Made by a program: the position numbers and the translations under genes
Assembly: GCA_963847625.1 (NCBI GenBank)
Contig: CAWKAR010000027.1
Location: forward strand, 96,001 to 160,000
Direction: 5' to 3'
Source of the DNA: a candidate division FCPU426 bacterium
GTDB taxonomy: Bacteria > Oederibacteriota > Muellerivitia > Muellerivitales > Muellerivitaceae
DNA: 64,000 nucleotides
Part shown: piece by piece, positions 8,047-32,118 of the stretch
How positions within the stretch are numbered: position 1 is the first letter of the stretch
Layout: every line of letters starts with the position of its first letter
Notes under the pieces: generated by a model
What the model was told of the DNA's origin: nothing
The model's input: the letters and a program-made list of their open reading frames with translations, nothing else
Database searches by the model: none

Positions 8047-8316
8047 GATATTTCTACTGCTTTCGGTTTGTTGCCGGGATCCCTCCTGAAAATCAAAAAT
8101 TCACTGGTATAATTCATCCTAAATTTCGGATGAGTATTTGGTTTCAACGAATAGGGCAAAGAAATTCAAAATAAGGGTGAAATGTCTTTTAATTCCTTTC
8201 TTAAACTGGTTTTTTATTGTTTTGTTTGAAAAGCCGAAGGACATCCGTTGTGGTAAGCTATTGCCTTCAAATAGCATATTAATTTGATATATCTTTTTTA
8301 AGAGGGAGTACCAATC

Positions 8317-20581: not shown

Positions 20582-21636
20582 GCCGAATTCACGGAGTAAG
20601 TGCAACACTTCGCCGGAAGACTTCCGCCGGAGTTTTAAAGCCCAAACATTTCCTGGGTCTGTTATTGAGCCATCTTTCTATGGCCCTGAATTTTTTGAAG
20701 GACACTTTAGCAAGATCAGTCTTTTTAGGCAAATGGCGGCGGACAAGACCGATAGTATTTTCCACAGTACCTTTTTCCCAACTGTGGAAAGGGGCGCAGA
20801 AAAAGGATTTTGTACCAAGCACGTGGTTGGTTTCCAAGTGGTTGGTGTTTTCGGTTCCGTTGTCATAGGTCAGACTCAAGCGGGCGTCTTGAGGGAAGCG
20901 GCATAAAGCGCGGTTGAGGCTATGACTCATTTGGCGAGCGGTCTTTCGTTTGAGCTTTCCCAACTTGGAAAAACGGCTTTGACGCTCGACGAGAGCCCGC
21001 ATAGCCACTTTACTCTGACGAGAGACCATGGTGTCGGTTTCCCAATGGCCGAATTGCTTGCGTTGATTGGCGATCTCGGAGCGCTTATCGATGGAAACAC
21101 GGCCTGGGATATGGTTTTTGGCGTGCTTACGGCTGTGGCCAAATGAGAATCGTCGCCGGTGGTGTCGAACTAGGCAAGGAATCAGCTCAGTGGCTTCAGC
21201 GTAAACCCACTGATAGATAGCTTCAGGACCAATGGTTTGCTTAGGCCGTAGGTGACCTAATCGACCTGAAATGAGTTCTGGAGACCAGCCTCGTTTCAAT
21301 TGACGACGGACGTAGGCACGAATTCGTTTTGTTTTCAGGCGTAAACGGCGTGCTCGTTGTTGGTTGCGGTCAACATACCGTTGATGGGCTCGATGAGAAA
21401 GATAATAACCAGAACGGATAGGGGGAGCATTGCGCTTGAGTTCCCTGGAGAGGGTGGAAGGAGACCTCTTCAAGGCGCGTGAAATTGCTCGAAGGCTAAG
21501 ACCCTTTCCTTTCAAGACGGATAAATGATCTCTTTCTTCAACGCTTAAATGCTTGTATTTCTTTTTCATAGCCGCATATCCTATTCATGCGGCCTTCTTC
21601 AGACACTAAGTGTTGCACTTACTTATGGAACTCGGG
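20582..21636 (-). mobile_element. IS30-family insertion sequence
   Basis: Imperfect TIRs GCCGAATTC..AGTAAGTGCAACACTT / CCCGAGTTC..AGTAAGTGCAACACTT; 3-bp TSD ATG. Confidence 0.92.
20589..21569 (-). CDS. IS30-family transposase
   Basis: HTH LSRELKRN, GHWETDT, TYDNGTE, SWEKGTVEN, NNRPRKCLGFKTP. Confidence 0.95.
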   Translation of the reverse strand: MKKKYKHLSVEERDHLSVLKGKGLSLRAISRALKRSPSTLSRELKRNAPPIRSGYYLSHRAHQRYVDRNQQRARRLRLKTKRIRAYVRRQLKRGWSPELISGRLGHLRPKQTIGPEAIYQWVYAEATELIPCLVRHHRRRFSFGHSRKHAKNHIPGRVSIDKRSEIANQRKQFGHWETDTMVSRQSKVAMRALVERQSRFSKLGKLKRKTARQMSHSLNRALCRFPQDARLSLTYDNGTENTNHLETNHVLGTKSFFCAPFHSWEKGTVENTIGLVRRHLPKKTDLAKVSFKKFRAIERWLNNRPRKCLGFKTPAEVFRRSVALTP

Positions 21637-21914
21637 ATGCGTATTCCTCGACCCTTTTCTCATTTACCAACAAACCCTATCTCGTGCGCAGTAATTTTCC
21701 AGCATTGATGGTCATGCTGGCTGTTACCACCGCTTTATACCTTGTCCCTAACATCAAAGACTCCTATGCCGAAAGTGTATAATGACTGATATGGGCGGCA
21801 TAGTAAGATTCGGGTTTTGGCGCGAGATATTGAGGTGGGCCTAAAATGTAATATGTTAGGCTAGGCCCTTTTGTTTTTCTAAGTGACGAATGATAGCTTG
21901 ACCCAATTTTTTCA

Positions 21915-22225
21915 GGGTTCCCGAGTTCCGGAGGTTCCCGGGTTCCGGAGTTCCCGGGCCTGTCCCGAAGGGCTCACCACAGGCTCTGTCGAAGGATTCC
22001 CGCAGTTCGTCTGGCTTACCGCTCTTACCGGCTTACCGGGCTTACCGACTTACCGCCCTTACCAGTTTACTGGCTTACCGCCTGGCTTACTGACTTACCG
22101 GCTTACCGCCCTTACCGACTTACTGGCTTACCGCCTTACCGGGCTTACCGCTCTTACCACGAACCCAGTGCAGAAAGCCCGGAACCCAGTGCTGGGGGCC
22201 GCGAACCCAGTTCCAAGAGCTGGGT
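21915..22225. repeat. Degenerate short tandem repeats (GTTCCCG, CTTACCG/CTTACTG, GAACCCAGT)
   Basis: Many 7-9-bp CTTACC(G) units at about 22013-22158. Confidence 0.8.
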
Positions 22226-22230
22226 AACCT

Positions 22231-22660
22231 GGGATAACCCAGCGGCATAGGAGATAATCCAGCGGCATTCGAGGGATAACCCAGCGGCATAGGAGATAAT
22301 CCAGCGGCATTCGAGGGTTAACCCAGCGGCATAGGAGATAATCCAGCGGCATTTGAGGGTTAACCCAGCGGCATGGGGGGATAACCCAGCGGCATGGGAG
22401 ATAATCCAGCGGCATTAGGGGGATAACCCAGCGGCATGGGAGATAATCCAGCGGCATTAGGGGATAACCCGGCGGCATGGGAGATAATCCAGCGGCATTT
22501 AGGGGATAACCCAGCGGCATGGGAGATAATCCAGCGGCATTCGAGGGTTAACCCAGCGGCATAGGGGGATAATCCAGCGGCATTAGGGGGATAACCCAGC
22601 GGCATGGGCCGGAGGTCCGTAGGCACAGGCCGGTAATCCTGTAGGCACAGGCCGGGGGTC
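22231..22660. repeat. 20-22-bp tandem repeat array (core (A/T)TAAYCCAGCGGCAT, 18 copies)
   Basis: Alternating AACCC/AATCC variants give a ~42-bp higher-order period; followed by two copies of GTAGGCACAGGCCGG. Confidence 0.9.
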
Positions 22661-22869
22661 CTGGAAAGCCTGCTGATGTTCCCGTTTTCATAGGCCAACC
22701 AAGTCATGTAAAAATGGGGTTTCAAATCCCCGGGCAACAGGCCCCTTTTCCAAAGGGAGGCCAAAACCCTCAGGCCCAATAGATGGTTACGCCCCGACCG
22801 GGCCGCTTTTAGGATCCTCGGATCGCTGGGCATATTTTGCCGTCTTGTTTTATGGGTTTTAGGTTTCAT
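22360..22869 (-). pseudogene. Possible small DNA-binding protein gene whose 3' end runs into the repeat array
   Basis: GAGG RBS; ENGNISRLSR resembles the start of a Fis-type HTH, followed by repeat-derived sequence. Confidence 0.3.
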
Positions 22870-23077
22870 AAATCACGCCTCATTTTTTCTTTTTAAAACC
22901 CCCTTGATGAGGGTAAGGGTATTCACGGGTTATTCCAAGCGAAAATCCGGGGTTGGGCGCCAAGCGCCCCATGGCTGTTTTATCCCGGTGGTCTCTTTCC
23001 GCGAACATATGTGATAGACTAAAAAAAATCACGAATTTTTCGGGGGTTCACCCATTAAAAATCTCTCGTTTTTTTTC

Positions 23078-25234: not shown

Positions 25235-25337
25235 ATTTCCGGGTTTTTAAATGGATTACTTTCGATTATTCCAAAGAGCTAAAATAAAGCCGTATTAATA
25301 GTTTCGATAGAGGGCGGTTCGAATCCCATTCGGCCAG
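25235..25337 (+). repeat. 103-bp direct repeat copy 1 (promoter-like stretch, tRNA-like T-arm, GGCCAG core)
   Basis: Four mismatches to 27339-27441. Confidence 0.9.
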
Positions 25338-25355
25338 GGTTCAAAGGAAAATTTT

Positions 25356-26378
25356 ATGCGAACAAAATTAATTATTTTTCTATTAATTATACTATTTAAT
25401 AATTCGGCAGAAGCATTGGCCTGGTTAGTACCCTTATTGAACAAGAATGAAAAACTGTCGGAAAAATTTTTTATTTATAAACCCTTTTTTGATATCAAAA
25501 AAATTTCTATTAATTGTATTGAAAATGACGATATTTTGGATTTATTGGAGGAAGTAAAGGGTGTGAGTACGAATAGTTACAAGTCAATAAACGATTTAGA
25601 AAAGTTAGGATTTAAACTAAATATAGTTATAAGCCACTATGACAAAGAATGGTTAAAAGAAGCTTATGGAAATGAGTTTTTACAAAATCATTATGGGAAT
25701 AATTGGTTAGAAAAAAGTGATGATGATTTACCAGTTACAGAGGTTCACTATTTAAATGAAATTGTAATGGATGATTACAAAAGATTTGTTCTAGTTTGTT
25801 CGGGCGAAACATATTTATATTTAATAGATACTCAATCAAAACCGATTAAGACTTGGCTTCTTGATGAAAATTGCACATGTCCAAATAAAATCGATAAGGT
25901 TCTTAAACGAAATGAAGAAAGTTTTAGATTTATTTACCGAGAATTTCCTGGCAATGGCCGTTTGGCAGGCGCTCCAAGGGTAGAGGTGAAAGACATAGAT
26001 TTTAATAAAAAAATACTGGCTCAAATAAAAGGCAATTATTTAGAGGATATTAATAAGGACGGAAATCCAGAAGTCATAATTTCCAATGAACTTGATTTCA
26101 ATATTAATTGGTATTGGATATTTAGATATGAAAACGGGGAATGGGTTGAGAGTAGTAATAGATATCCAGAATATTACAAAAGCGCCGTTAAAAATATTTT
26201 GGAAGAACAATATGAAAGTACAAAAAAAACATATATTGAATTGAAAAATAACTCTCATTCAAAATCAGTTTCTAGTCTTGAATACCGGATGAAAGAATTA
26301 TTCGCTTTAATTGAAATTGCCAAATTTGGCGGAATTTCTGAGTATTTAAAGAAATTTCATGCAGGGGAGACGTTTTAA
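25356..26378 (+). CDS. AT-rich secreted hypothetical protein (cassette 1)
   Basis: Signal peptide; DINKDGNPE motif; base composition differs from flanks. Confidence 0.7.
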   Translation: MRTKLIIFLLIILFNNSAEALAWLVPLLNKNEKLSEKFFIYKPFFDIKKISINCIENDDILDLLEEVKGVSTNSYKSINDLEKLGFKLNIVISHYDKEWLKEAYGNEFLQNHYGNNWLEKSDDDLPVTEVHYLNEIVMDDYKRFVLVCSGETYLYLIDTQSKPIKTWLLDENCTCPNKIDKVLKRNEESFRFIYREFPGNGRLAGAPRVEVKDIDFNKKILAQIKGNYLEDINKDGNPEVIISNELDFNINWYWIFRYENGEWVESSNRYPEYYKSAVKNILEEQYESTKKTYIELKNNSHSKSVSSLEYRMKELFALIEIAKFGGISEYLKKFHAGETF

Positions 26379-26463
26379 TAGTTGGAAAAAGGGAATTCAG
26401 GGGGAACTTTAGGGGAACCCTTCGAGGGCCTCAGGGCAAGCTTTTCGGGAGTAAACGGGGAAA

Positions 26464-26601
26464 GTAGAGCCCCTCACACCGCAGCGAGTGGCAGGGCTTC
26501 GAGAGCCTCAGGGCAGGCTATTAAAGAGTGGGAAAGCCCTGTATTAGTTGAGTTCTAAATGCATCCATGAAGGGCAGCCAATAAAACCTAGTCTCCCTTT
26601 C
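26464..26601 (+). repeat. Cassette right-end repeat copy 1, core GGGCAG, CCA and partial terminator
   Basis: Matches 28249-28362 and 31670-31741. Confidence 0.85.
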
Positions 26602-26706
26602 GCTCACGGGAAATGTGATCTATCGGGCCATGTGGTTGATGCTCTCATGATGGCACTGCCACACGCTGCGGTGCGTGGGGCCGTGGGGTTATAAAAAACG
26701 GAGCAA

Positions 26707-26991
26707 TCAAGAATGGTGGGGGATCCGGCCGTCGGCGACCTTGTGAAGCACGCTGGCGATGAAGGTTTGGTAGGGCATGCCCTCCTCCATGGCCTTGAGT
26801 TGAATGGCCTTCAGGTCGTATTCGGACAGGCGAATGTTGATGCGGCGGTTTTTCTTGAGGGTTTCCCGCGCGTAAGCCTCGTATTTTTTCCTCTCGCCCG
26901 GCAGGTTTTTAACGCTTTTGAACTTGCCCGCCTCATAGGAGCCCAGAAGGTCCTGTTCTTCCCAGGTTAACTTATCTTTCACGGGTTTCAC
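26707..26991 (-). CDS. CopG/BrnA-like antitoxin
   Basis: RRINIRLSEYDLKAIQLKAMEEGMPYQTFIASVLH RHH motif; overlaps the toxin gene. Confidence 0.85.
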   Translation of the reverse strand: MKPVKDKLTWEEQDLLGSYEAGKFKSVKNLPGERKKYEAYARETLKKNRRINIRLSEYDLKAIQLKAMEEGMPYQTFIASVLHKVADGRIPHHS

Positions 26992-27262
26992 CTCTTTTCA
27001 AGTATTTCTGCGCTGCTTTCCGGCTCGGGATGACCGTGATCAACCTGATGCCGTCCCCTTTTTCCTCGAAGGGAACCAAAAAGACATACTCAAAAGCTTT
27101 TACCACCATGACTTTTTGCCCTGGATATTTGCTTGGATTGGGATGGACGAGGACGTCCAACAAACCCCCGGATTGAACGCTCCAAAGAATGGCTTCGAAA
27201 GAGATGTTCCTTTCCCGGATGAGCTTTTCGTTTTTCAGGGGATCCCAGCTGAAAAAGGGCAT
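26972..27262 (-). CDS. BrnT-like toxin
   Basis: FSWDPLKNEKLIRERNISFE, HPNPSKYPGQ, LITVIPSRKA. Confidence 0.8.
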   Translation of the reverse strand: MPFFSWDPLKNEKLIRERNISFEAILWSVQSGGLLDVLVHPNPSKYPGQKVMVVKAFEYVFLVPFEEKGDGIRLITVIPSRKAAQKYLKRGETRER

Positions 27263-27338
27263 GAACCAATAATAGCCTAATGTGTGCCTTTTGGCAACAG
27301 GGCCTAAGCTTGAATGGCCCGTGCAAAAAAGGGGTCGG

Positions 27339-27441
27339 ATTTCCGGGTTTTTAAATGGAATACTTTCGATTATTCCAAAGAGCTAAAATAAAGCCATATT
27401 AATAGTTTCGATAGAGGGTGGTTCGAATCCCATCCGGCCAG
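27339..27441 (+). repeat. 103-bp direct repeat copy 2
   Basis: Offset of 2104 nt from copy 1; ends GGTTCGAATCCCATCCGGCCAG. Confidence 0.9.
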
Positions 27442-27515
27442 AGTTCTAGCTGTCCGCCAAGGGGAGGGAAAGAAAGAAAATTCTGATTTTTTTGGATGAT
27501 TTTGGAGAATCAAAT

Positions 27516-28163
27516 ATGCAAAAAAACCACCTGAATATTATTTATATGATTGTAGGATTCTTTTTGGTTCTGGCCGTTGCTTCTTTTATTTCGCGCGACA
27601 ATAAAAATAGGTTTTCCCCCCAAATTGATAATATGCCTGAAAGCACCCCAGATATTTTCGGGGTCAATTTTGATAAACGCTACGGTTTACCGGATGGTGT
27701 TGGCCTTAGTGCGCTTTCACCTGAATTAGCAGATGATGTACCTTCCTCTGAACCATTAACAATGGTGACCCTAAAAAACGGGAAGGCTGCTTTAGCAGAC
27801 AAAGAGGGGAAAATCGTCTTAAAAACCAATTACGATTGGATTGGAAAATTCCATGACGGCTTGGCATTGGTGAAGATAGAAGGTGATGAGGATTATGGTG
27901 GCCCCCATCCAAATTCTTGGGGATATATCAACGTGAAAGGTAAAGTCGTTATCCCTTTTCAATTTAATCAAGCATATCCTTTTTCAGAAGGCTTGGCGCC
28001 AATTCAGGATAAACATGGTAGGTATGGTTTTACTGATATACACGGAAAAATGGTTATTCAACCACAATATGACGATTTCATGGAATTCTCAGATGGTCAG
28101 AACCAGGTTAAGCTAAATAAAGTTTGGATATGGATAAACAAAAAAGGTGAAAGAATCCAATAA
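27516..28163 (+). CDS. WG (KWG)-repeat membrane-anchored protein (cassette 2)
   Basis: FHDGLALV, WGYINVKGKVVIP, FSEGLAP, YGFTDIHGKMVI repeats. Confidence 0.85.
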   Translation: MQKNHLNIIYMIVGFFLVLAVASFISRDNKNRFSPQIDNMPESTPDIFGVNFDKRYGLPDGVGLSALSPELADDVPSSEPLTMVTLKNGKAALADKEGKIVLKTNYDWIGKFHDGLALVKIEGDEDYGGPHPNSWGYINVKGKVVIPFQFNQAYPFSEGLAPIQDKHGRYGFTDIHGKMVIQPQYDDFMEFSDGQNQVKLNKVWIWINKKGERIQ

Positions 28164-28248
28164 TAATTAAATCAATGATTGATTTTTGATTTGGCCATGA
28201 TGTGGAGCCATTTCAAAAGTGGGAAAAGGGGAATTTGGGGGAACTTTC

Positions 28249-28377
28249 GTGGAGCCCCTCGCACCGCAGCGAGTGGCAGGGCTTCGAGAGCCTCAGGGCA
28301 GGCTATTAAAGAATGGGAAACCTCTATATTAGTTGAGTTCTAAATGTGTCCATGAAGGCCAGGGCTCTAGCTGTCCA
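28249..28377 (+). repeat. Cassette right-end, GGCCAG core and cassette left-end (tandem junction)
   Basis: AGTTCTAAATGTGTCCATGAA-GGCCAG-GGCTCTAGCTGTCC. Confidence 0.85.
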
Positions 28378-28446
28378 CTATGGGGACCCGGAGTGGACAA
28401 GGTGGAAGAAATGCAAAAAGCAATGGCCAAAAGGGAGTGACAATAA

Positions 28447-28701
28447 ATGAGTGTTCAACTCCGAATAAAAAATAAAAAAAAATCCTTTCATCAATGGTTT
28501 TTAGCCGGCTTTATAATTACCCCGGCATGGGGATTTTTTGTTCATAAAATAGCCAATTTTTATTTAGATGATCTCCCAAAAGGTGGTTTCCAGAGGGCTA
28601 AAGAACTCGGAATAGAAATCGCAATCTGGGGTCCATTTGCAGTTTGGTTAGTCCTCTTCTTCATACATCGTAAAAATAAACTACCTAAAAATGGTGGTTA
28701 A
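28447..28701 (+). CDS. Small two-TM hypothetical protein (cassette 3)
   Basis: GGGAG RBS; two hydrophobic segments. Confidence 0.55.
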   Translation: MSVQLRIKNKKKSFHQWFLAGFIITPAWGFFVHKIANFYLDDLPKGGFQRAKELGIEIAIWGPFAVWLVLFFIHRKNKLPKNGG

Positions 28702-29769
28702 TTAGTTTGTTGGTTATTGGTTGTCCATTCCGGGGAGGCATTTCATAACAGAAGAAATTTGAAAAAAAGATAAGAGATTTTGACTTCTCCTTAAGTTTAT
28801 AAATGCTTTTAAGTAATTACGCAAATAAAGGCCGGAAATGGGAATTTTCTTTTTATTTCTTTTCGTATTAATGATTACCCTTTTACCTGTTGTCGGCGCT
28901 TTTTTGTCTATTTCTTGCAAGAAAAAATTATTTATCATTTTGGGTTATGTATTAACCGCGATTATTTTTGGTGGTCTTATTAAGTTGTTAGGGGGTATTT
29001 CAGACAAGGCCGGAATAGTTCTTTCGTTTGGTTTCATCTTATTAATTTTTTACGGGTTTTATTTAAAAGAGAAATATAAAAAATTTAAGTATTTAGGCAT
29101 TTTATTGATTGTCTTGAGTTGGATCATTGGGTCTTTCAATATCATTGGCATTGTTATATTTACTCCCGAAAATCCAAATATATTAAATTTGGCCAATAAA
29201 CCCACGGTCGGAACAATTAAAGTAAAAAACATTAACCCATTTTTTAAATCATATCCCCCCGAAAAAAGAGAATTATTAGAAAAATATTTATCCCGAAGTA
29301 AAGATTGGCAATTAACCCGGTTGGGATCAATGAACCCACTTGGCGGGGCTTTGGTTGCTTTAAAACGTGTTTCTGGAAACCCGATGAATTTAGATGTTCT
29401 GGATAATTTTGGATATACGTTTAGAACAGGCTTGAGAGATGGTGAACCTTTCGAAGAAAAAACAATGGTTTGCTTTGAGCCGATAAATTTTAACGATTCA
29501 TGGCGAAAGGATGGATTTGTAAATAATTGTTATGATTCGATTTTTAAAATTAACCAATACACTGGATTCAAGGGGGAAGAGTACGAATATTTCATTTTAA
29601 AGTTTAATAATTTTTCCTTTGAGGCTTTTGAGCGGGGAAGTGGTATAGGATATATTCAATCCGCATTGGATAATTTTAAAGAAATCTTAGAAAAAGTATC
29701 AAAAGTTTCTAATATAAACGATAAAGAAATAGAAAATTCTTTAATATCTGATGAATCAATAAAAATTTT

Positions 29770-31091
29770 CACTAGTGTCCGGTTAACGATCTTCCAAAAA
29801 CTCTAAAAGCCTTTGCCTGTAATCTGTTCCATGCCTAAACGACCTTTTTCGATTTGAACTGAATCGTCCTGCCTCACCATCCTTTCATCCAAGAAAGGGT
29901 GGTTCCTTATGAATGCCGGACGTACTGTTTTTGCTCAGTTGATGGACTTCTTTCCCCGCCATGAGTTTCAGAAATGCGTTGATCGCTACCACGGCAACCG
30001 TAGGATCCGCAGCTTCTCCTGTCTCGATCAATTCCTCTGCATGGTTTTCGCCCAGCTTACCTACCGGGAAGGTCTCCGCGACATTGAAGCCTGTCTGGGT
30101 TCCTTCAAAAACAAACTTTACCACGTAGGTATCCGTGGACGGGTCGCCAGGGCTACACTGGCTGACGCCAACCAAAAGCGAGATTGGCGTATCTACGCCG
30201 ACTTCGCCCAAGTCCTGATCAAAACCGCCCAATCCCTTTACACCAATGACGATTTTAGCGTGGACTTGAACCAAGCCGCCTATGCCTTGGACTCCACCAT
30301 CATCGACCTATGCCTATCGCTCTTTCCTTGGGCGCGCTTTCGGTCCACGAAATCAGGCGTCAAACTACACACCCTTCTCAACCTCAGAAGCAACATTCCC
30401 GCTTTTGCCTGTGTTTCCAACGCTTCCGTGCATGACGTACATTTGCTGGACATCCTACCCTTGGAACCAGGCTCCTTCTACATGCTCGACCGTGGCTACA
30501 CGGATTTCAGCAGATTGAACCGCCTCATCGAAAACCTTTCCTTCTTTGTCATACGTGCCAAGTCCAATTTTAACTTCTATCGGCGATATTCCGCCCCTGT
30601 GAATTTATCTCTGGGCCTTCGGTTCGACCAGACTGTCGTCTTGGCCGATCCGAATAAGTTCAAGGAATATCCTCATCCCCTACGCCGCATCGGCTTCGTT
30701 GACCCCATCACCCGTAAGCGCTTGGTTTTTCTTACCAATAACTTCGTCTTACCAGCTTTGACCATCTGTCAACTCTACAAATCTAGATGGCAAGTCGAAC
30801 TCTTCTTCAAGTGGATCAAACAGCATCTTCGCATCAAAGCTTTCTTTGGCACATCATCCAATGCCGTCAAAACCCAAATTTGGATCGCTATTTGCGTGTA
30901 TGTCTTAGTCGCCATCGTCAAGAAAAAACTCGGCCTTCAATTAAGCCTTTACACAATCCTACAGATTTTGAGCGTCACCCTTTTTGAGAAAACCCCTATA
31001 CTACAAGCGTTTTCAGACGACGCCTGCATTTCAGAAAACACCAACACTGAAAACCAATTGTCTTTACTGCGTTTTTAACCGGACACTTGTG
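29770..31091 (+). mobile_element. IS4-family insertion sequence
   Basis: TIRs CACTAGTGTCCGGTTAA / CACAAGTGTCCGGTTAA; 9-bp TSD AAAAATTTT. Confidence 0.95.
29909..31078 (+). CDS. IS4-family transposase (DUF4372 N-terminus)
   Basis: FAQLTYREGLRDIE, LDSTII, DRGY, YKSRWQVELFFKWIKQHL. Confidence 0.95.
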   Translation: MNAGRTVFAQLMDFFPRHEFQKCVDRYHGNRRIRSFSCLDQFLCMVFAQLTYREGLRDIEACLGSFKNKLYHVGIRGRVARATLADANQKRDWRIYADFAQVLIKTAQSLYTNDDFSVDLNQAAYALDSTIIDLCLSLFPWARFRSTKSGVKLHTLLNLRSNIPAFACVSNASVHDVHLLDILPLEPGSFYMLDRGYTDFSRLNRLIENLSFFVIRAKSNFNFYRRYSAPVNLSLGLRFDQTVVLADPNKFKEYPHPLRRIGFVDPITRKRLVFLTNNFVLPALTICQLYKSRWQVELFFKWIKQHLRIKAFFGTSSNAVKTQIWIAICVYVLVAIVKKKLGLQLSLYTILQILSVTLFEKTPILQAFSDDACISENTNTENQLSLLRF

Positions 31092-31669
31092 AAAAATTTT
31101 AAATAAACCTACCATCAAAATAATTCAGGCATTCCCTCCGGGAAGATTTATTGTTTCAGGTTATATAAATCCTGGGAAAGAAGGCTACATAAAATTACGA
31201 GTTACTAATTCTACCGACGGAAAACCCGCTGAAATTTCTAGTCGTAGCGACTTTGGAATTAGGATCGAATATGTCGGATGGTCAAAGAATATAAATGAAA
31301 AATATTATTATGAAACCGGCATCGAAATAAAAAACTATAAACAACCTTTAATGTTTAACGTAATGTTTTTTCCAACAGATGGAACGGCTGAAACGTCACT
31401 TGTTCAGATGAAATATACATTTGACCAAAAAAATATGACTTGGACCAAGAAAAAAATAATGCAGAAATATTAAAAAAATAAGGCGACATATCAATGGTTA
31501 ATTCAAAGCAAGTTTGTATAGAGTTGGGAAAATTTCCTTGATATATAACCTTCTTATTTGCCACTAATGGTGGGTTGCTCTTAATTTTATTTAGCAAATT
31601 CTAGGTGAAATGTTCGCAAACCCTTGAATCCGGAGAGCCGCCTTTAAAAGTGGAATGGGGAAACTATGC

Positions 31670-31720
31670 GGGAAACCCCTGTATTAGAAAAGTTCTAAAT
31701 GTGTCCATGAAGGCCAGCCA
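31670..31720 (+). repeat. Cassette right-end repeat copy 3 with GGCCAG-CCA
   Basis: GGGAAACCCCTGTATTAGAAAAGTTCTAAATGTGTCCATGAAGGCCAGCCA. Confidence 0.85.
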
Positions 31721-31722
31721 CT

Positions 31723-31759
31723 AAAACCTAGTCTCCCTTTCAGGGAGCTGGTTTTTTTT
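31723..31759 (+). terminator. Intrinsic terminator closing the + strand cassette array
   Basis: AAAACCTAGTCTCCCTTTCAGGGAGCTGGTTTTTTTT. Confidence 0.7.
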
Positions 31760-31768
31760 ATTTGAAGT

Positions 31769-31979
31769 CACACCTGTCCAAAATAGGCTTTTGCCACGGA
31801 TGCATGGGATACATGGGATTTAAAAAACATAAGTTTAAAGCCTTTTTTTATGTTCTATCCGAGTGCATCCCCTGAATCCGTGGCAAAGGACTTGGTTTTG
31901 CTTAACGCCTTTTAGAATTAAAAACTTCTGATTTAATTTATCTTTGTTCCCTGGTTTTTGTTTAATTTGGACGGCAATG
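31769..31979. mobile_element. Non-autonomous MITE-like element
   Basis: Flanking ATTTGAAGT direct repeat; imperfect TIRs ending GTCCAAA; internal TTTGCCACGGAT/ATCCGTGGCAAA inverted repeat. Confidence 0.65.
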
Positions 31980-32118
31980 ATTTGAAGTCAAGGATTTGAA
32001 CCTGGGGTACACAATTTGACCTGGTCGCCTACTGGCAGGTACCGGGTCTGGCATATGCGATGCCGCCTACTGGCAGGTTTCGGAACCCTCCCGCGATTGC
32101 GGTTTAGCGGGAGTGCTT

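Follow-up and report, generated by a model that had tools for sequence, protein, structure and literature searches.

Single-gene cassettes between symmetric sites in an uncultured bacterial order suggest a serine-recombinase counterpart of integrons

Cassette capture described so far, in integrons and in dif modules, relies on tyrosine chemistry; a serine equivalent, if true, would mean that the integron design arose twice. We analysed positions 25235..31759 of a 64,000-nt stretch of DNA (the window, in whose own numbering its coordinates are given; GenBank contig CAWKAR010000027.1, 96,001 to 160,000) from a candidate division FCPU426 bacterium, where an earlier note had described an integrase-less cassette array around five junctions, J1 to J5. 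We propose that serine-type recombination has joined units without recombinases of their own into a stack at this locus, and that the stack has two layers: elements of large serine recombinases (LSRs) inserted at tRNA-Gln with CA-centred junctions, and single-gene cassettes bounded by GA-centred sites, which a short serine recombinase would move. We give this two-layer explanation as a whole a probability of about 0.68.

These arrays resemble integrons, and attC-site clusters that have no integron integrase (CALINs), in several respects. Their cassettes are co-oriented, mostly hold one gene and change order, presumably by circular excision; toxin–antitoxin and unknown genes are frequent; a recombinase gene stands at an array end, and many arrays have no recombinase. 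They differ in enzyme and in site. No IntI (TIGR02249 above cut-off) was found in 31 family genomes, and the gene at the array end encodes a serine enzyme and converges on the cassette genes rather than diverging from them. An attC site has R″/R′ core motifs and a long imperfect hairpin, whereas the sites here are 30-bp palindromes of the perfect type without attC core motifs, and no cassette promoter was found at the site, −10 boxes not being enriched 15-19 nt behind its TGGACA. The pdif modules of Acinetobacter plasmids are likewise small gene modules bounded by short double-stranded sites, on which host XerC/D acts in trans; the GA and CA sites differ from the dif-like palindrome of this lineage.

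Among serine systems, the ssrA islands of Dehalococcoides share with this locus an overlap of the recombinase gene with the attachment (att) site, tandem units, some without an integration module, and growth by accretion; the available text of PMC3146451 reports that the 3′ end of dsiB overlaps the att site and that 15 islands have no integration module. The same text describes multi-gene islands at one locus with an enzyme (DsiB) of ~540 aa, whereas here there are 15 clusters in one genome away from tRNAs, units of 0.1-3 kb, symmetric sites and a 276-aa enzyme. Staphylococcal cassette chromosomes (SCC, SCCmec; CcrAB/CcrC) also stack by LSR action and include elements without a recombinase (PMC3146451, available text). 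They differ in using one chromosomal site, large elements and full-length enzymes, and are not known to form arrays of single-gene cassettes. Phage LSRs (Listeria LI/A118, phiC31, Bxb1) have the same catalytic and recombinase domains and a central crossover dinucleotide. According to the available portions of PMC3783163 and PMC5499577, they need asymmetric attP and attB (~50 and ~40 bp), a zinc ribbon, a coiled coil and a directionality factor, whereas the short enzyme here has neither zinc ribbon nor coiled coil and the sites are 14+2+14. By themselves, the five CA junctions are a further form of stacked LSR islands. What would be new in kind are the GA sites together with their short enzyme, a judgement that depends on the presumed catalytic role of that enzyme; we found no description of the short enzyme, the symmetric sites or the cassette system in the literature, with subscription papers outside the coverage.

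Symmetric GA sites and their cassettes

Genomes are labelled G (G000 is the host, G001 a genome of the same genus), contigs C, and metagenome or relatives' loci L. The order comprises 32 genomes, 31 of the family and one of a sister family, in a phylum set of 99. Whole-genome counts were made for the host only; elsewhere, GA-site and cassette arrays were taken where pattern searches matched.

The P′ arm of the window junctions consists of 23 bp that lead directly to a second, GA-centred site resembling the 3′ end of tRNA-Asn. Searched with a matrix trained on it, the host genome gave 100 matches of at least 16 bits, and its reversed sequence gave 2. Raising the threshold to 17 bits and discarding mirror matches left 79 sites, as 15 clusters and 27 singletons, and adjacent sites lay on the same strand in 37 cases and on opposite strands in 2. 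Fifteen clusters in one genome mean that there is no tandem stacking at one fixed gene end; the six that share a contig with tRNA genes lie at least 14.7 kb from any tRNA, and no GA site was found beside the intact tRNA-Asn at four of four relatives' loci. The full site occurs in 29 of the 99 phylum genomes (28/31 in the family, 1/1 in the sister family, 0/67 elsewhere), with up to 111 matches per genome when both strands of palindromes are counted, and exact matches in viral contigs numbered 0.

Alignment of 500 unique sites from 14 genomes revealed conservation only from −14 to +14, mirror-symmetric about GA even though positions +5 to +14 lay outside the site-search matrix. The consensus is a 30-bp palindrome about GA, unlike the asymmetric attP and attB. 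Beyond position 14 on either side these sites hold at most 0.31 bits, and no outer zinc-ribbon motif is present.

Between the sites lie 361 unique segments, 355 of which are at least 200 bp long with a gene of at least 60 aa. These cassettes have a median length of 821 bp; 215 contain a single gene, the largest gene is co-oriented in 331 of 355, and a stop codon lies within 50 nt of the putative crossover in 236 of 344. In a random Pfam sample of 80 of 434 cassette proteins from four genomes, 39 had no Pfam family and 10 were toxin–antitoxin parts, the rest including GH12, GH43 and immunity-like proteins.

Cassette content varies between relatives, as the earlier note had anticipated. Among 66 pairs of full-length homologous cassettes the neighbours differ on both sides in every pair, and homology begins and ends at the sites. 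In four pairs identity reaches 99-100%, and three of these four span genera. The host and G072 share an identical 416-bp cassette, for which the bases to the right of GA read GGC in one and CCC in the other; a second near-identical pair differs at −3, on the left. Taken together, the left-hand change at −3 and the right-hand changes at +1 to +3 would bracket the crossover to GG-GA. The cassette system is almost certainly real, and serine chemistry is very probable.

Group IIC-attC introns reportedly insert within integron attC sites, and group II intron-like elements in GA sites offer a parallel. At 4 of 541 sites such an element starts within the right arm (at +5 in three, at +12 in one): C55:3043(-) in the host, two sites in L059 (G001) and L064:8543 (G002). 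The G002 copy contains a 436-aa frame, and cassettes of G072 hold reverse transcriptase/maturase genes. Contig breaks terminate many arrays.

LSR arms and units at the five junctions

The features of the locus are as follows.

25235..25336, + strand: J1 left arm, a repeated arm ending in a tRNA-Gln-like 3′ copy; putative crossover CA at 25335-25336
25337..26574, + strand: unit 1, 1238 bp, 33% GC, its left end truncated, followed by a single cargo gene, a GA half-site (26367-26368) in degenerate form and the P arm
25356..26378, + strand: cargo gene for a 340-aa protein whose N-terminus is hydrophobic and for which Pfam gives no significant family (FG-GAP E=0.033)
26575..26600, + strand: J2, CA at 26575-26576 (core GGGCAG), then 24 bases like the tRNA-Gln(CUG) terminator
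26707..27262, − strand: toxin–antitoxin pair, a BrnT-like toxin (below the Pfam cut-off) and a CopG-type antitoxin
27339..27440, + strand: left arm of J3, sharing 96% identity with that of J1; CA at 27439-27440
27441..28359, + strand: unit 2, 919 bp, consisting of a CA-to-GA adapter of 23 bp, the GA at 27464-27465, the cargo gene, a half-site with GA at 28205-28206 and the P arm
27492..28163, + strand: gene of a 223-aa WG-repeat protein (PF14903, E=7e-29)
28360..28361, + strand: J4, the CA joining units 2 and 3 (P arm to adapter)
28371..28400, + strand: complete symmetric 30-bp GA site (14+2+14), GA at 28385-28386, 27.5 bits
28387..28736, + strand: GA cassette of 350 bp, with an 84-aa membrane-type gene at 28447-28701, ending at the GA site 28735-28736 (20.4 bits)
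28737..31636, + strand: GA cassette with a membrane-protein gene (start 28838) interrupted by IS4, the open frame resuming at 31102-31473; degenerate GA half-site at 31635-31636
29770..31092, + strand: IS4-family element, 9-bp target duplication, transposase at 29909-31078, 3 identical genome copies
31637..31716, + strand: unit 3's P arm together with J5 (CA at 31715-31716); its antisense reading, WLAFMDTFRTFLIQGFPA-stop, is an LSR tail
31717..31760, + strand: J5 right flank, GCCA followed by a hairpin and a run of T, resembling the tRNA-Gln(CUG) terminator

The five junctions, and the few arm types that they share, could be re-read in the sequence just as the earlier note had described them. 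The J1 and J3 left arms agree at 98 of 102 bases, and the J2 and J5 right arms at 23 of their first 24. The P-arm motif occurs three times in the window and not once in 30 shuffles of 2-base blocks; in the search that the note had proposed, six copies were found genome-wide, 4 of 40 relatives also had the motif, and the reversed pattern gave 0 matches. The shared 6-bp GGCCAG core has to be given up: J2 reads GGGCAG, and arms in the genome and its relatives read GGC or GGG followed by CA, CG, TA or GA. The crossover of J1-J5 would lie at or beside the dinucleotide CA; bases vary on both sides of CA among the arms, and they include no near-identical pair with which to map a 2-bp crossover.

Several observations tie these arms to LSRs. 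The arms that the note labelled B and B′ copy the tRNA-Gln 3′ end and the terminator behind tRNA-Gln(CUG), respectively; B, which had been implied to be plain host DNA, is instead a repeated and probably mobile arm that carries such a tRNA-Gln-like 3′ copy. The J1 left arm has 17 nhmmer matches in the genome, tRNA-Asn itself among them. The J1/J3 arm reads LAEWDSNR in an antisense frame, resembling the tail WLPVLDSNR of an LSR in G001, and is therefore probably mobile rather than host DNA; the opposite strand of the J5 arm contains WLAFMDTFRT, which resembles the tail EIWLAFLNTVRT of a full LSR in L257. Such coding of LSR tails by left-over arms would be explained by a crossover inside the recombinase's own 3′ end. 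G001 carries an intact tRNA-Gln(CUG) with a full LSR behind it, which shares 97.8% identity with one on C39 of the host; 10 kb further on stand the same empty ~150-bp unit that the host carries at C27:262692-262843, the P arm and the tRNA terminator. This LSR has resolvase, recombinase and zinc-ribbon domains, and its link to the window arm is in trans only. LSR genes run antisense into the tRNA end. The P arm also lies 86 bp behind intact tRNA-Gln genes in G011 and G009, with a tandem pair on G011 C67, and in G015 it separates units of ~800 bp. Full LSRs are present in G000, G001, G021, G025 and others, and recombinase genes overlapping their own att site occur together with recombinase-less satellites, as in the SCC and ssrA composite islands. 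Judged by their coding and flanks, J1-J5 are attachment arms of LSRs that target tRNA-Gln, not tyrosine-recombinase sites.

No recombinase of the tyrosine or serine class was found in the window, in agreement with the earlier note. Its view of integrase-less att-type units moved in trans, integron-like without attC, likewise held, given the empty unit elsewhere in the genome and arm-linked recombinases outside the window. Units 2 and 3 equal this empty unit split at its GA site, with one cassette inserted in unit 2 and two in unit 3. The count of two tandem cassettes in the second site fell short, since the note had overlooked six GA-centred sites or half-sites in the window (26367, 27464, 28205, 28385, 28735 and 31635), and it had also missed both the toxin–antitoxin pair, which sits within an 862-bp unit between J2 and J3, and the IS4-family element that interrupts the last cargo gene. 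Homologues of the pair in G001, G011 and G002 (antitoxin only) stand in other contexts without these arms. The cargo units are AT-rich (33%, 40% and 39% GC; genome 52%) and their genes co-oriented, as the note had said; its description of the genes as unrelated envelope genes has Pfam backing for the WG-repeat protein only, the remaining three cargo genes having no significant Pfam family.

Some candidate features were considered and set aside. An RNA gene at J1/J3 was one: ARAGORN found 0 tRNA genes in the window, and Rfam gave six weak matches only, all under gathering scores. No public sequencing run held half of the stretch, and in contigs of four runs, whose coverage was mainly IS4 and dispersed repeats, no credible circle or empty-site joint was found; a contig joint 28235-31658 is better read as another copy of the arm family. 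The GH44 homologues in G001 and G018 have other DNA behind them, synteny not being kept, and were dropped as an orthologous empty locus.

In the host, C39:118623-129629 contains nested elements at tRNA-Gln(UUG), where an element with a tyrosine integrase has displaced the tRNA 3′ end; the full LSR gene (128106-129629) ends at the displaced end, and its far arm was not found. A broken LSR of the tRNA-Asn type (C57:7756-9700, stop at 8241) lies by a tRNA-Asn 3′ copy and iteron-like repeats, and G001 has an intact 602-aa relative in the identical layout.

Recombinases that might move the cassettes

The host contig C61 (35485-36315) encodes a 276-aa serine recombinase, the end of whose gene and an array's last site are 10 bp apart. 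Pfam finds the Resolvase and Recombinase domains in this protein and no zinc ribbon. In a search limited to proteins of 152-485 aa, its relatives formed 19 clusters of 275-283 aa with 68-96% identity, followed by a gap to at most 61%. All 19 stop before the zinc ribbon, so that both zinc-ribbon and coiled-coil parts are missing, and they constitute one clade (support 100/100). The catalytic motifs YVRVSS and KTDRLYRN are invariant, and to judge by motif the catalytic serine of the host protein would be S20. The ratio of nonsynonymous to synonymous substitution rates was 0.08-0.16 in seven of ten pairs, with three saturated; the gene is under purifying selection. The gene end abuts a GA site in 12 of 12 cases examined; ten of these sites are full, one is a half-site and one is truncated where its contig ends. 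The 80 best of 565 metagenome loci include two of the short clade, both within these 12, and none of the other 78 has a GA site; the closest full-length relative in those 80, L210 (62%), reads into tRNA-Asn. The predicted fold matched serine integrase complexes best, in a middling model (pLDDT 69, pTM 0.43) that adds little to Pfam.

We propose the following mechanism. In layer 1, LSR elements would insert at the last bases of tRNA-Gln, with crossover at or next to CA and within the recombinase 3′ end, and a minimal satellite of ~150 bp would retain the CA arms, with a GA-centred second site 23 bp inside its left end. In layer 2, GA sites of tRNA-Asn type would have become the symmetric 30-bp sites that bound single-gene cassettes in arrays across the order. 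The short recombinase, encoded tail-on at the array end, would move cassettes between any two GA sites with little direction control: an enzyme without zinc ribbon and coiled coil would read only the inner half-site and treat symmetric sites alike, and the asymmetric GA dinucleotide would set orientation, which fits the co-oriented arrays. In serine integrases, different central dinucleotides keep sites from recombining, and CA and GA sites may be kept apart in the same way. The window units would then be CA-type carriers loaded with GA-type cassettes.

From its sequence and position, the short recombinase is probably the enzyme that shuffles the GA cassettes. In LI integrase the zinc ribbon contacts positions 16-24 of the attP half-site (PMC3783163, available text), and loss of the coiled coil makes the enzyme promiscuous yet inefficient, with intermolecular integration worst (PMC5499577, available text). 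Half-sites of 14 bp and free shuffling both fit an enzyme lacking these two parts.

A number of points weigh against this explanation. The inefficiency of LI integrase without its coiled coil is one, deletions of the whole zinc ribbon being outside the scope of that study as far as its available text goes (PMC5499577). The 12 gene ends are not independent, four being near-copies in G072. The whole short gene was found in 5 of 32 order genomes, with pieces in 2 more, and no resolvase-family gene in 19 of the 31 family genomes. The site-rich genomes without a resolvase-family match include G006, G011, G016, G022 and G023, which are 98, 99, 89, 90 and 89% complete, and G001 has GA sites but full-length LSRs only. 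Two of the three near-identical cross-genus pairs involve a genome in which no short gene was found (G022, G073). Two near-identical pairs differ at −4 or −5, in the arm expected to travel with the cassette, and concordance across the 66 pairs is only weakly polar. In addition, the CA arms of J1-J5 retain the outer motif (GTTCTAAA), which suits a full LSR; such an LSR may therefore be the enzyme of J1-J5, and the short enzyme may not act there. The patchiness of the short enzyme resembles, by analogy only, the integron pattern of CALINs without intI; half of CALINs lie in genomes without intI, according to the available text of PMC4889954.

The strongest alternative, which we nevertheless consider unlikely, is that full-length LSRs of the tRNA-Asn and tRNA-Gln types, arriving on passing elements, recombine everything, and that the short protein is a partner or site-binding regulator of the CcrA or DsiA kind, a guard that keeps arrays stable, or itself a frequent cassette. 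Full LSRs do occur in several of these genomes, the window has CA arms like those of a full LSR element, most site-rich genomes lack the short gene, and SCC and ssrA islands employ a second, smaller serine recombinase (PMC3146451, available text). Against it, the GA sites are symmetric and have no outer zinc-ribbon motif, unlike attP and attB; the short protein keeps its catalytic motifs and the DNA-binding recombinase domain, the latter reportedly absent from DsiA in the available text of PMC3146451; full LSRs are equally patchy; and the remaining 78 relatives in that set of the 80 best loci (of 565) all lack a GA site nearby.

A tyrosine recombinase acting in trans on a 6-8-bp overlap, as in the earlier note, is much less probable still. 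The candidates are an order-wide Xer-like gene and integrases of ~370 aa that target tRNAs. The range of the Xer-like gene equals that of the sites (31/32 order genomes, 0/67 outside), although a single evolutionary event would account for both; the gene is also present where no serine recombinase was found, and the GA site can be drawn as 11+8+11. The arms, however, encode serine-integrase C-terminal tails on their opposite strand, and the right half of the supposed spacer is not common to insertions of one cassette, the three bases right of GA differing fully between two insertions of the identical one. Across the six genomes compared, neither a tRNA-Asn 3′ copy nor the end of an array was found to have a tyrosine recombinase, which the note had suggested seeking beside the same arms; the nearest lies 6 kb from an array of G002. 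The downstream tRNA copies of the ~370-aa integrases begin near the anticodon. The Xer-like gene (C60:99799-100836(-) in the host) has its own ATAA-N6-TTAT palindrome just upstream in six of six genomes, which we take to be its dif-like target and which is unlike the GA and CA sites; we dropped this gene as the shuffler.

Hardly credible is the idea that the sites are inert scars or repeats of the repetitive extragenic palindromic kind, and that homologous recombination or transposition changes the cassette order. In its favour, small palindromic repeats and insertion sequences abound in the genome, and 27 of its 79 sites are singletons. Against it, the sites bound the homology of shared cassettes, a length of 30 bp is little for homologous recombination to act on, 99-100% identical cassettes have new neighbours on both sides in different genera, and neighbouring sites share a strand in 37 cases against 2.

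Within the two-layer explanation, we lean slightly towards a ‘serine integron’, in which integrons evolved a second time, from a serine integrase targeting tRNA-Asn that lost its direction-control half, with the tRNA-Gln satellites as a second, orthogonal channel; by carrying the CA-to-GA adapter, these satellites would ferry cassettes between genomes. Hundreds of swappable one-gene cassettes appear to be stored in this uncultured order, much as in integrons. Tools based on attC would miss the system, and cassette reservoirs in uncultured lineages may therefore be undercounted. If the proposal is true, the 276-aa enzyme would be a compact serine recombinase of natural origin that works in both directions, and the system a natural test of serine integrases without zinc ribbon and coiled coil, with bearing on directionality and on compact genome-engineering tools.

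Other recombinases, mobile elements and repeats

The host genome has 18 PF00589 matches, and the 16 frames read were mostly tRNA-targeting integrases, a three-gene cluster or Xer-like, none retained as a candidate. The genome has eight paralogous tyrosine integrases of ~355-385 aa (C3, C4, C16, C30, C36, C52, C56 and C60), 52-75% identical, one of them broken, and each lies by a tRNA gene or a 3′ copy of one. Behind the C60 integrase is a tRNA-Phe 3′ copy, although the ARAGORN list for the assembly has no tRNA-Phe gene, probably an assembly gap. Together with the contig breaks at array ends, this was noted with reference to C13:73711 and C61:36769. The Xer-like gene (L050-L054) is order-specific and single-copy, with conserved inverted motifs on both flanks; it scores 76-84 bits against TIGR02249 (cut-off 265) and may be an XerS-like single-enzyme dimer resolvase. 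XerC/D-like pairs are patchy in the family and at times multi-copy. IS110 enzymes were dismissed, being present in two of five genomes and not found in the site-rich G002 or G022.

Upstream of the locus, the window holds a transposase gene at 20589-21569 (HTH_38 and rve domains; presumably IS30-like), near-identical copies of which stand at several arrays of the genome, and scrambled intergenic tracts of short repeats (CTTACCG and GCCTACTGGCAG types) at 21880-22870, seen also at C27:252700-253700 in the host. Small palindromic repeats of the GCACCGCAGCG type occur at window positions 26466-26520, 28254-28305 and 26650-26685 and at many places in the genome; they lie inside P arms, and at 16 of 541 sites they follow GA immediately. 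A dispersed palindromic repeat of the GCCACGGATGCATGGGAT type, at 31770-31990, has dozens of copies in the genome and in G001. Finally, an element of ~110 bp with inverted ends resembling a tRNA T-loop trails many tRNA genes and att sites, lying behind tRNA-Gln(CUG) on C28, tRNA-Asn and tRNA-Ser on C4, at C27:262890-263010 and elsewhere.

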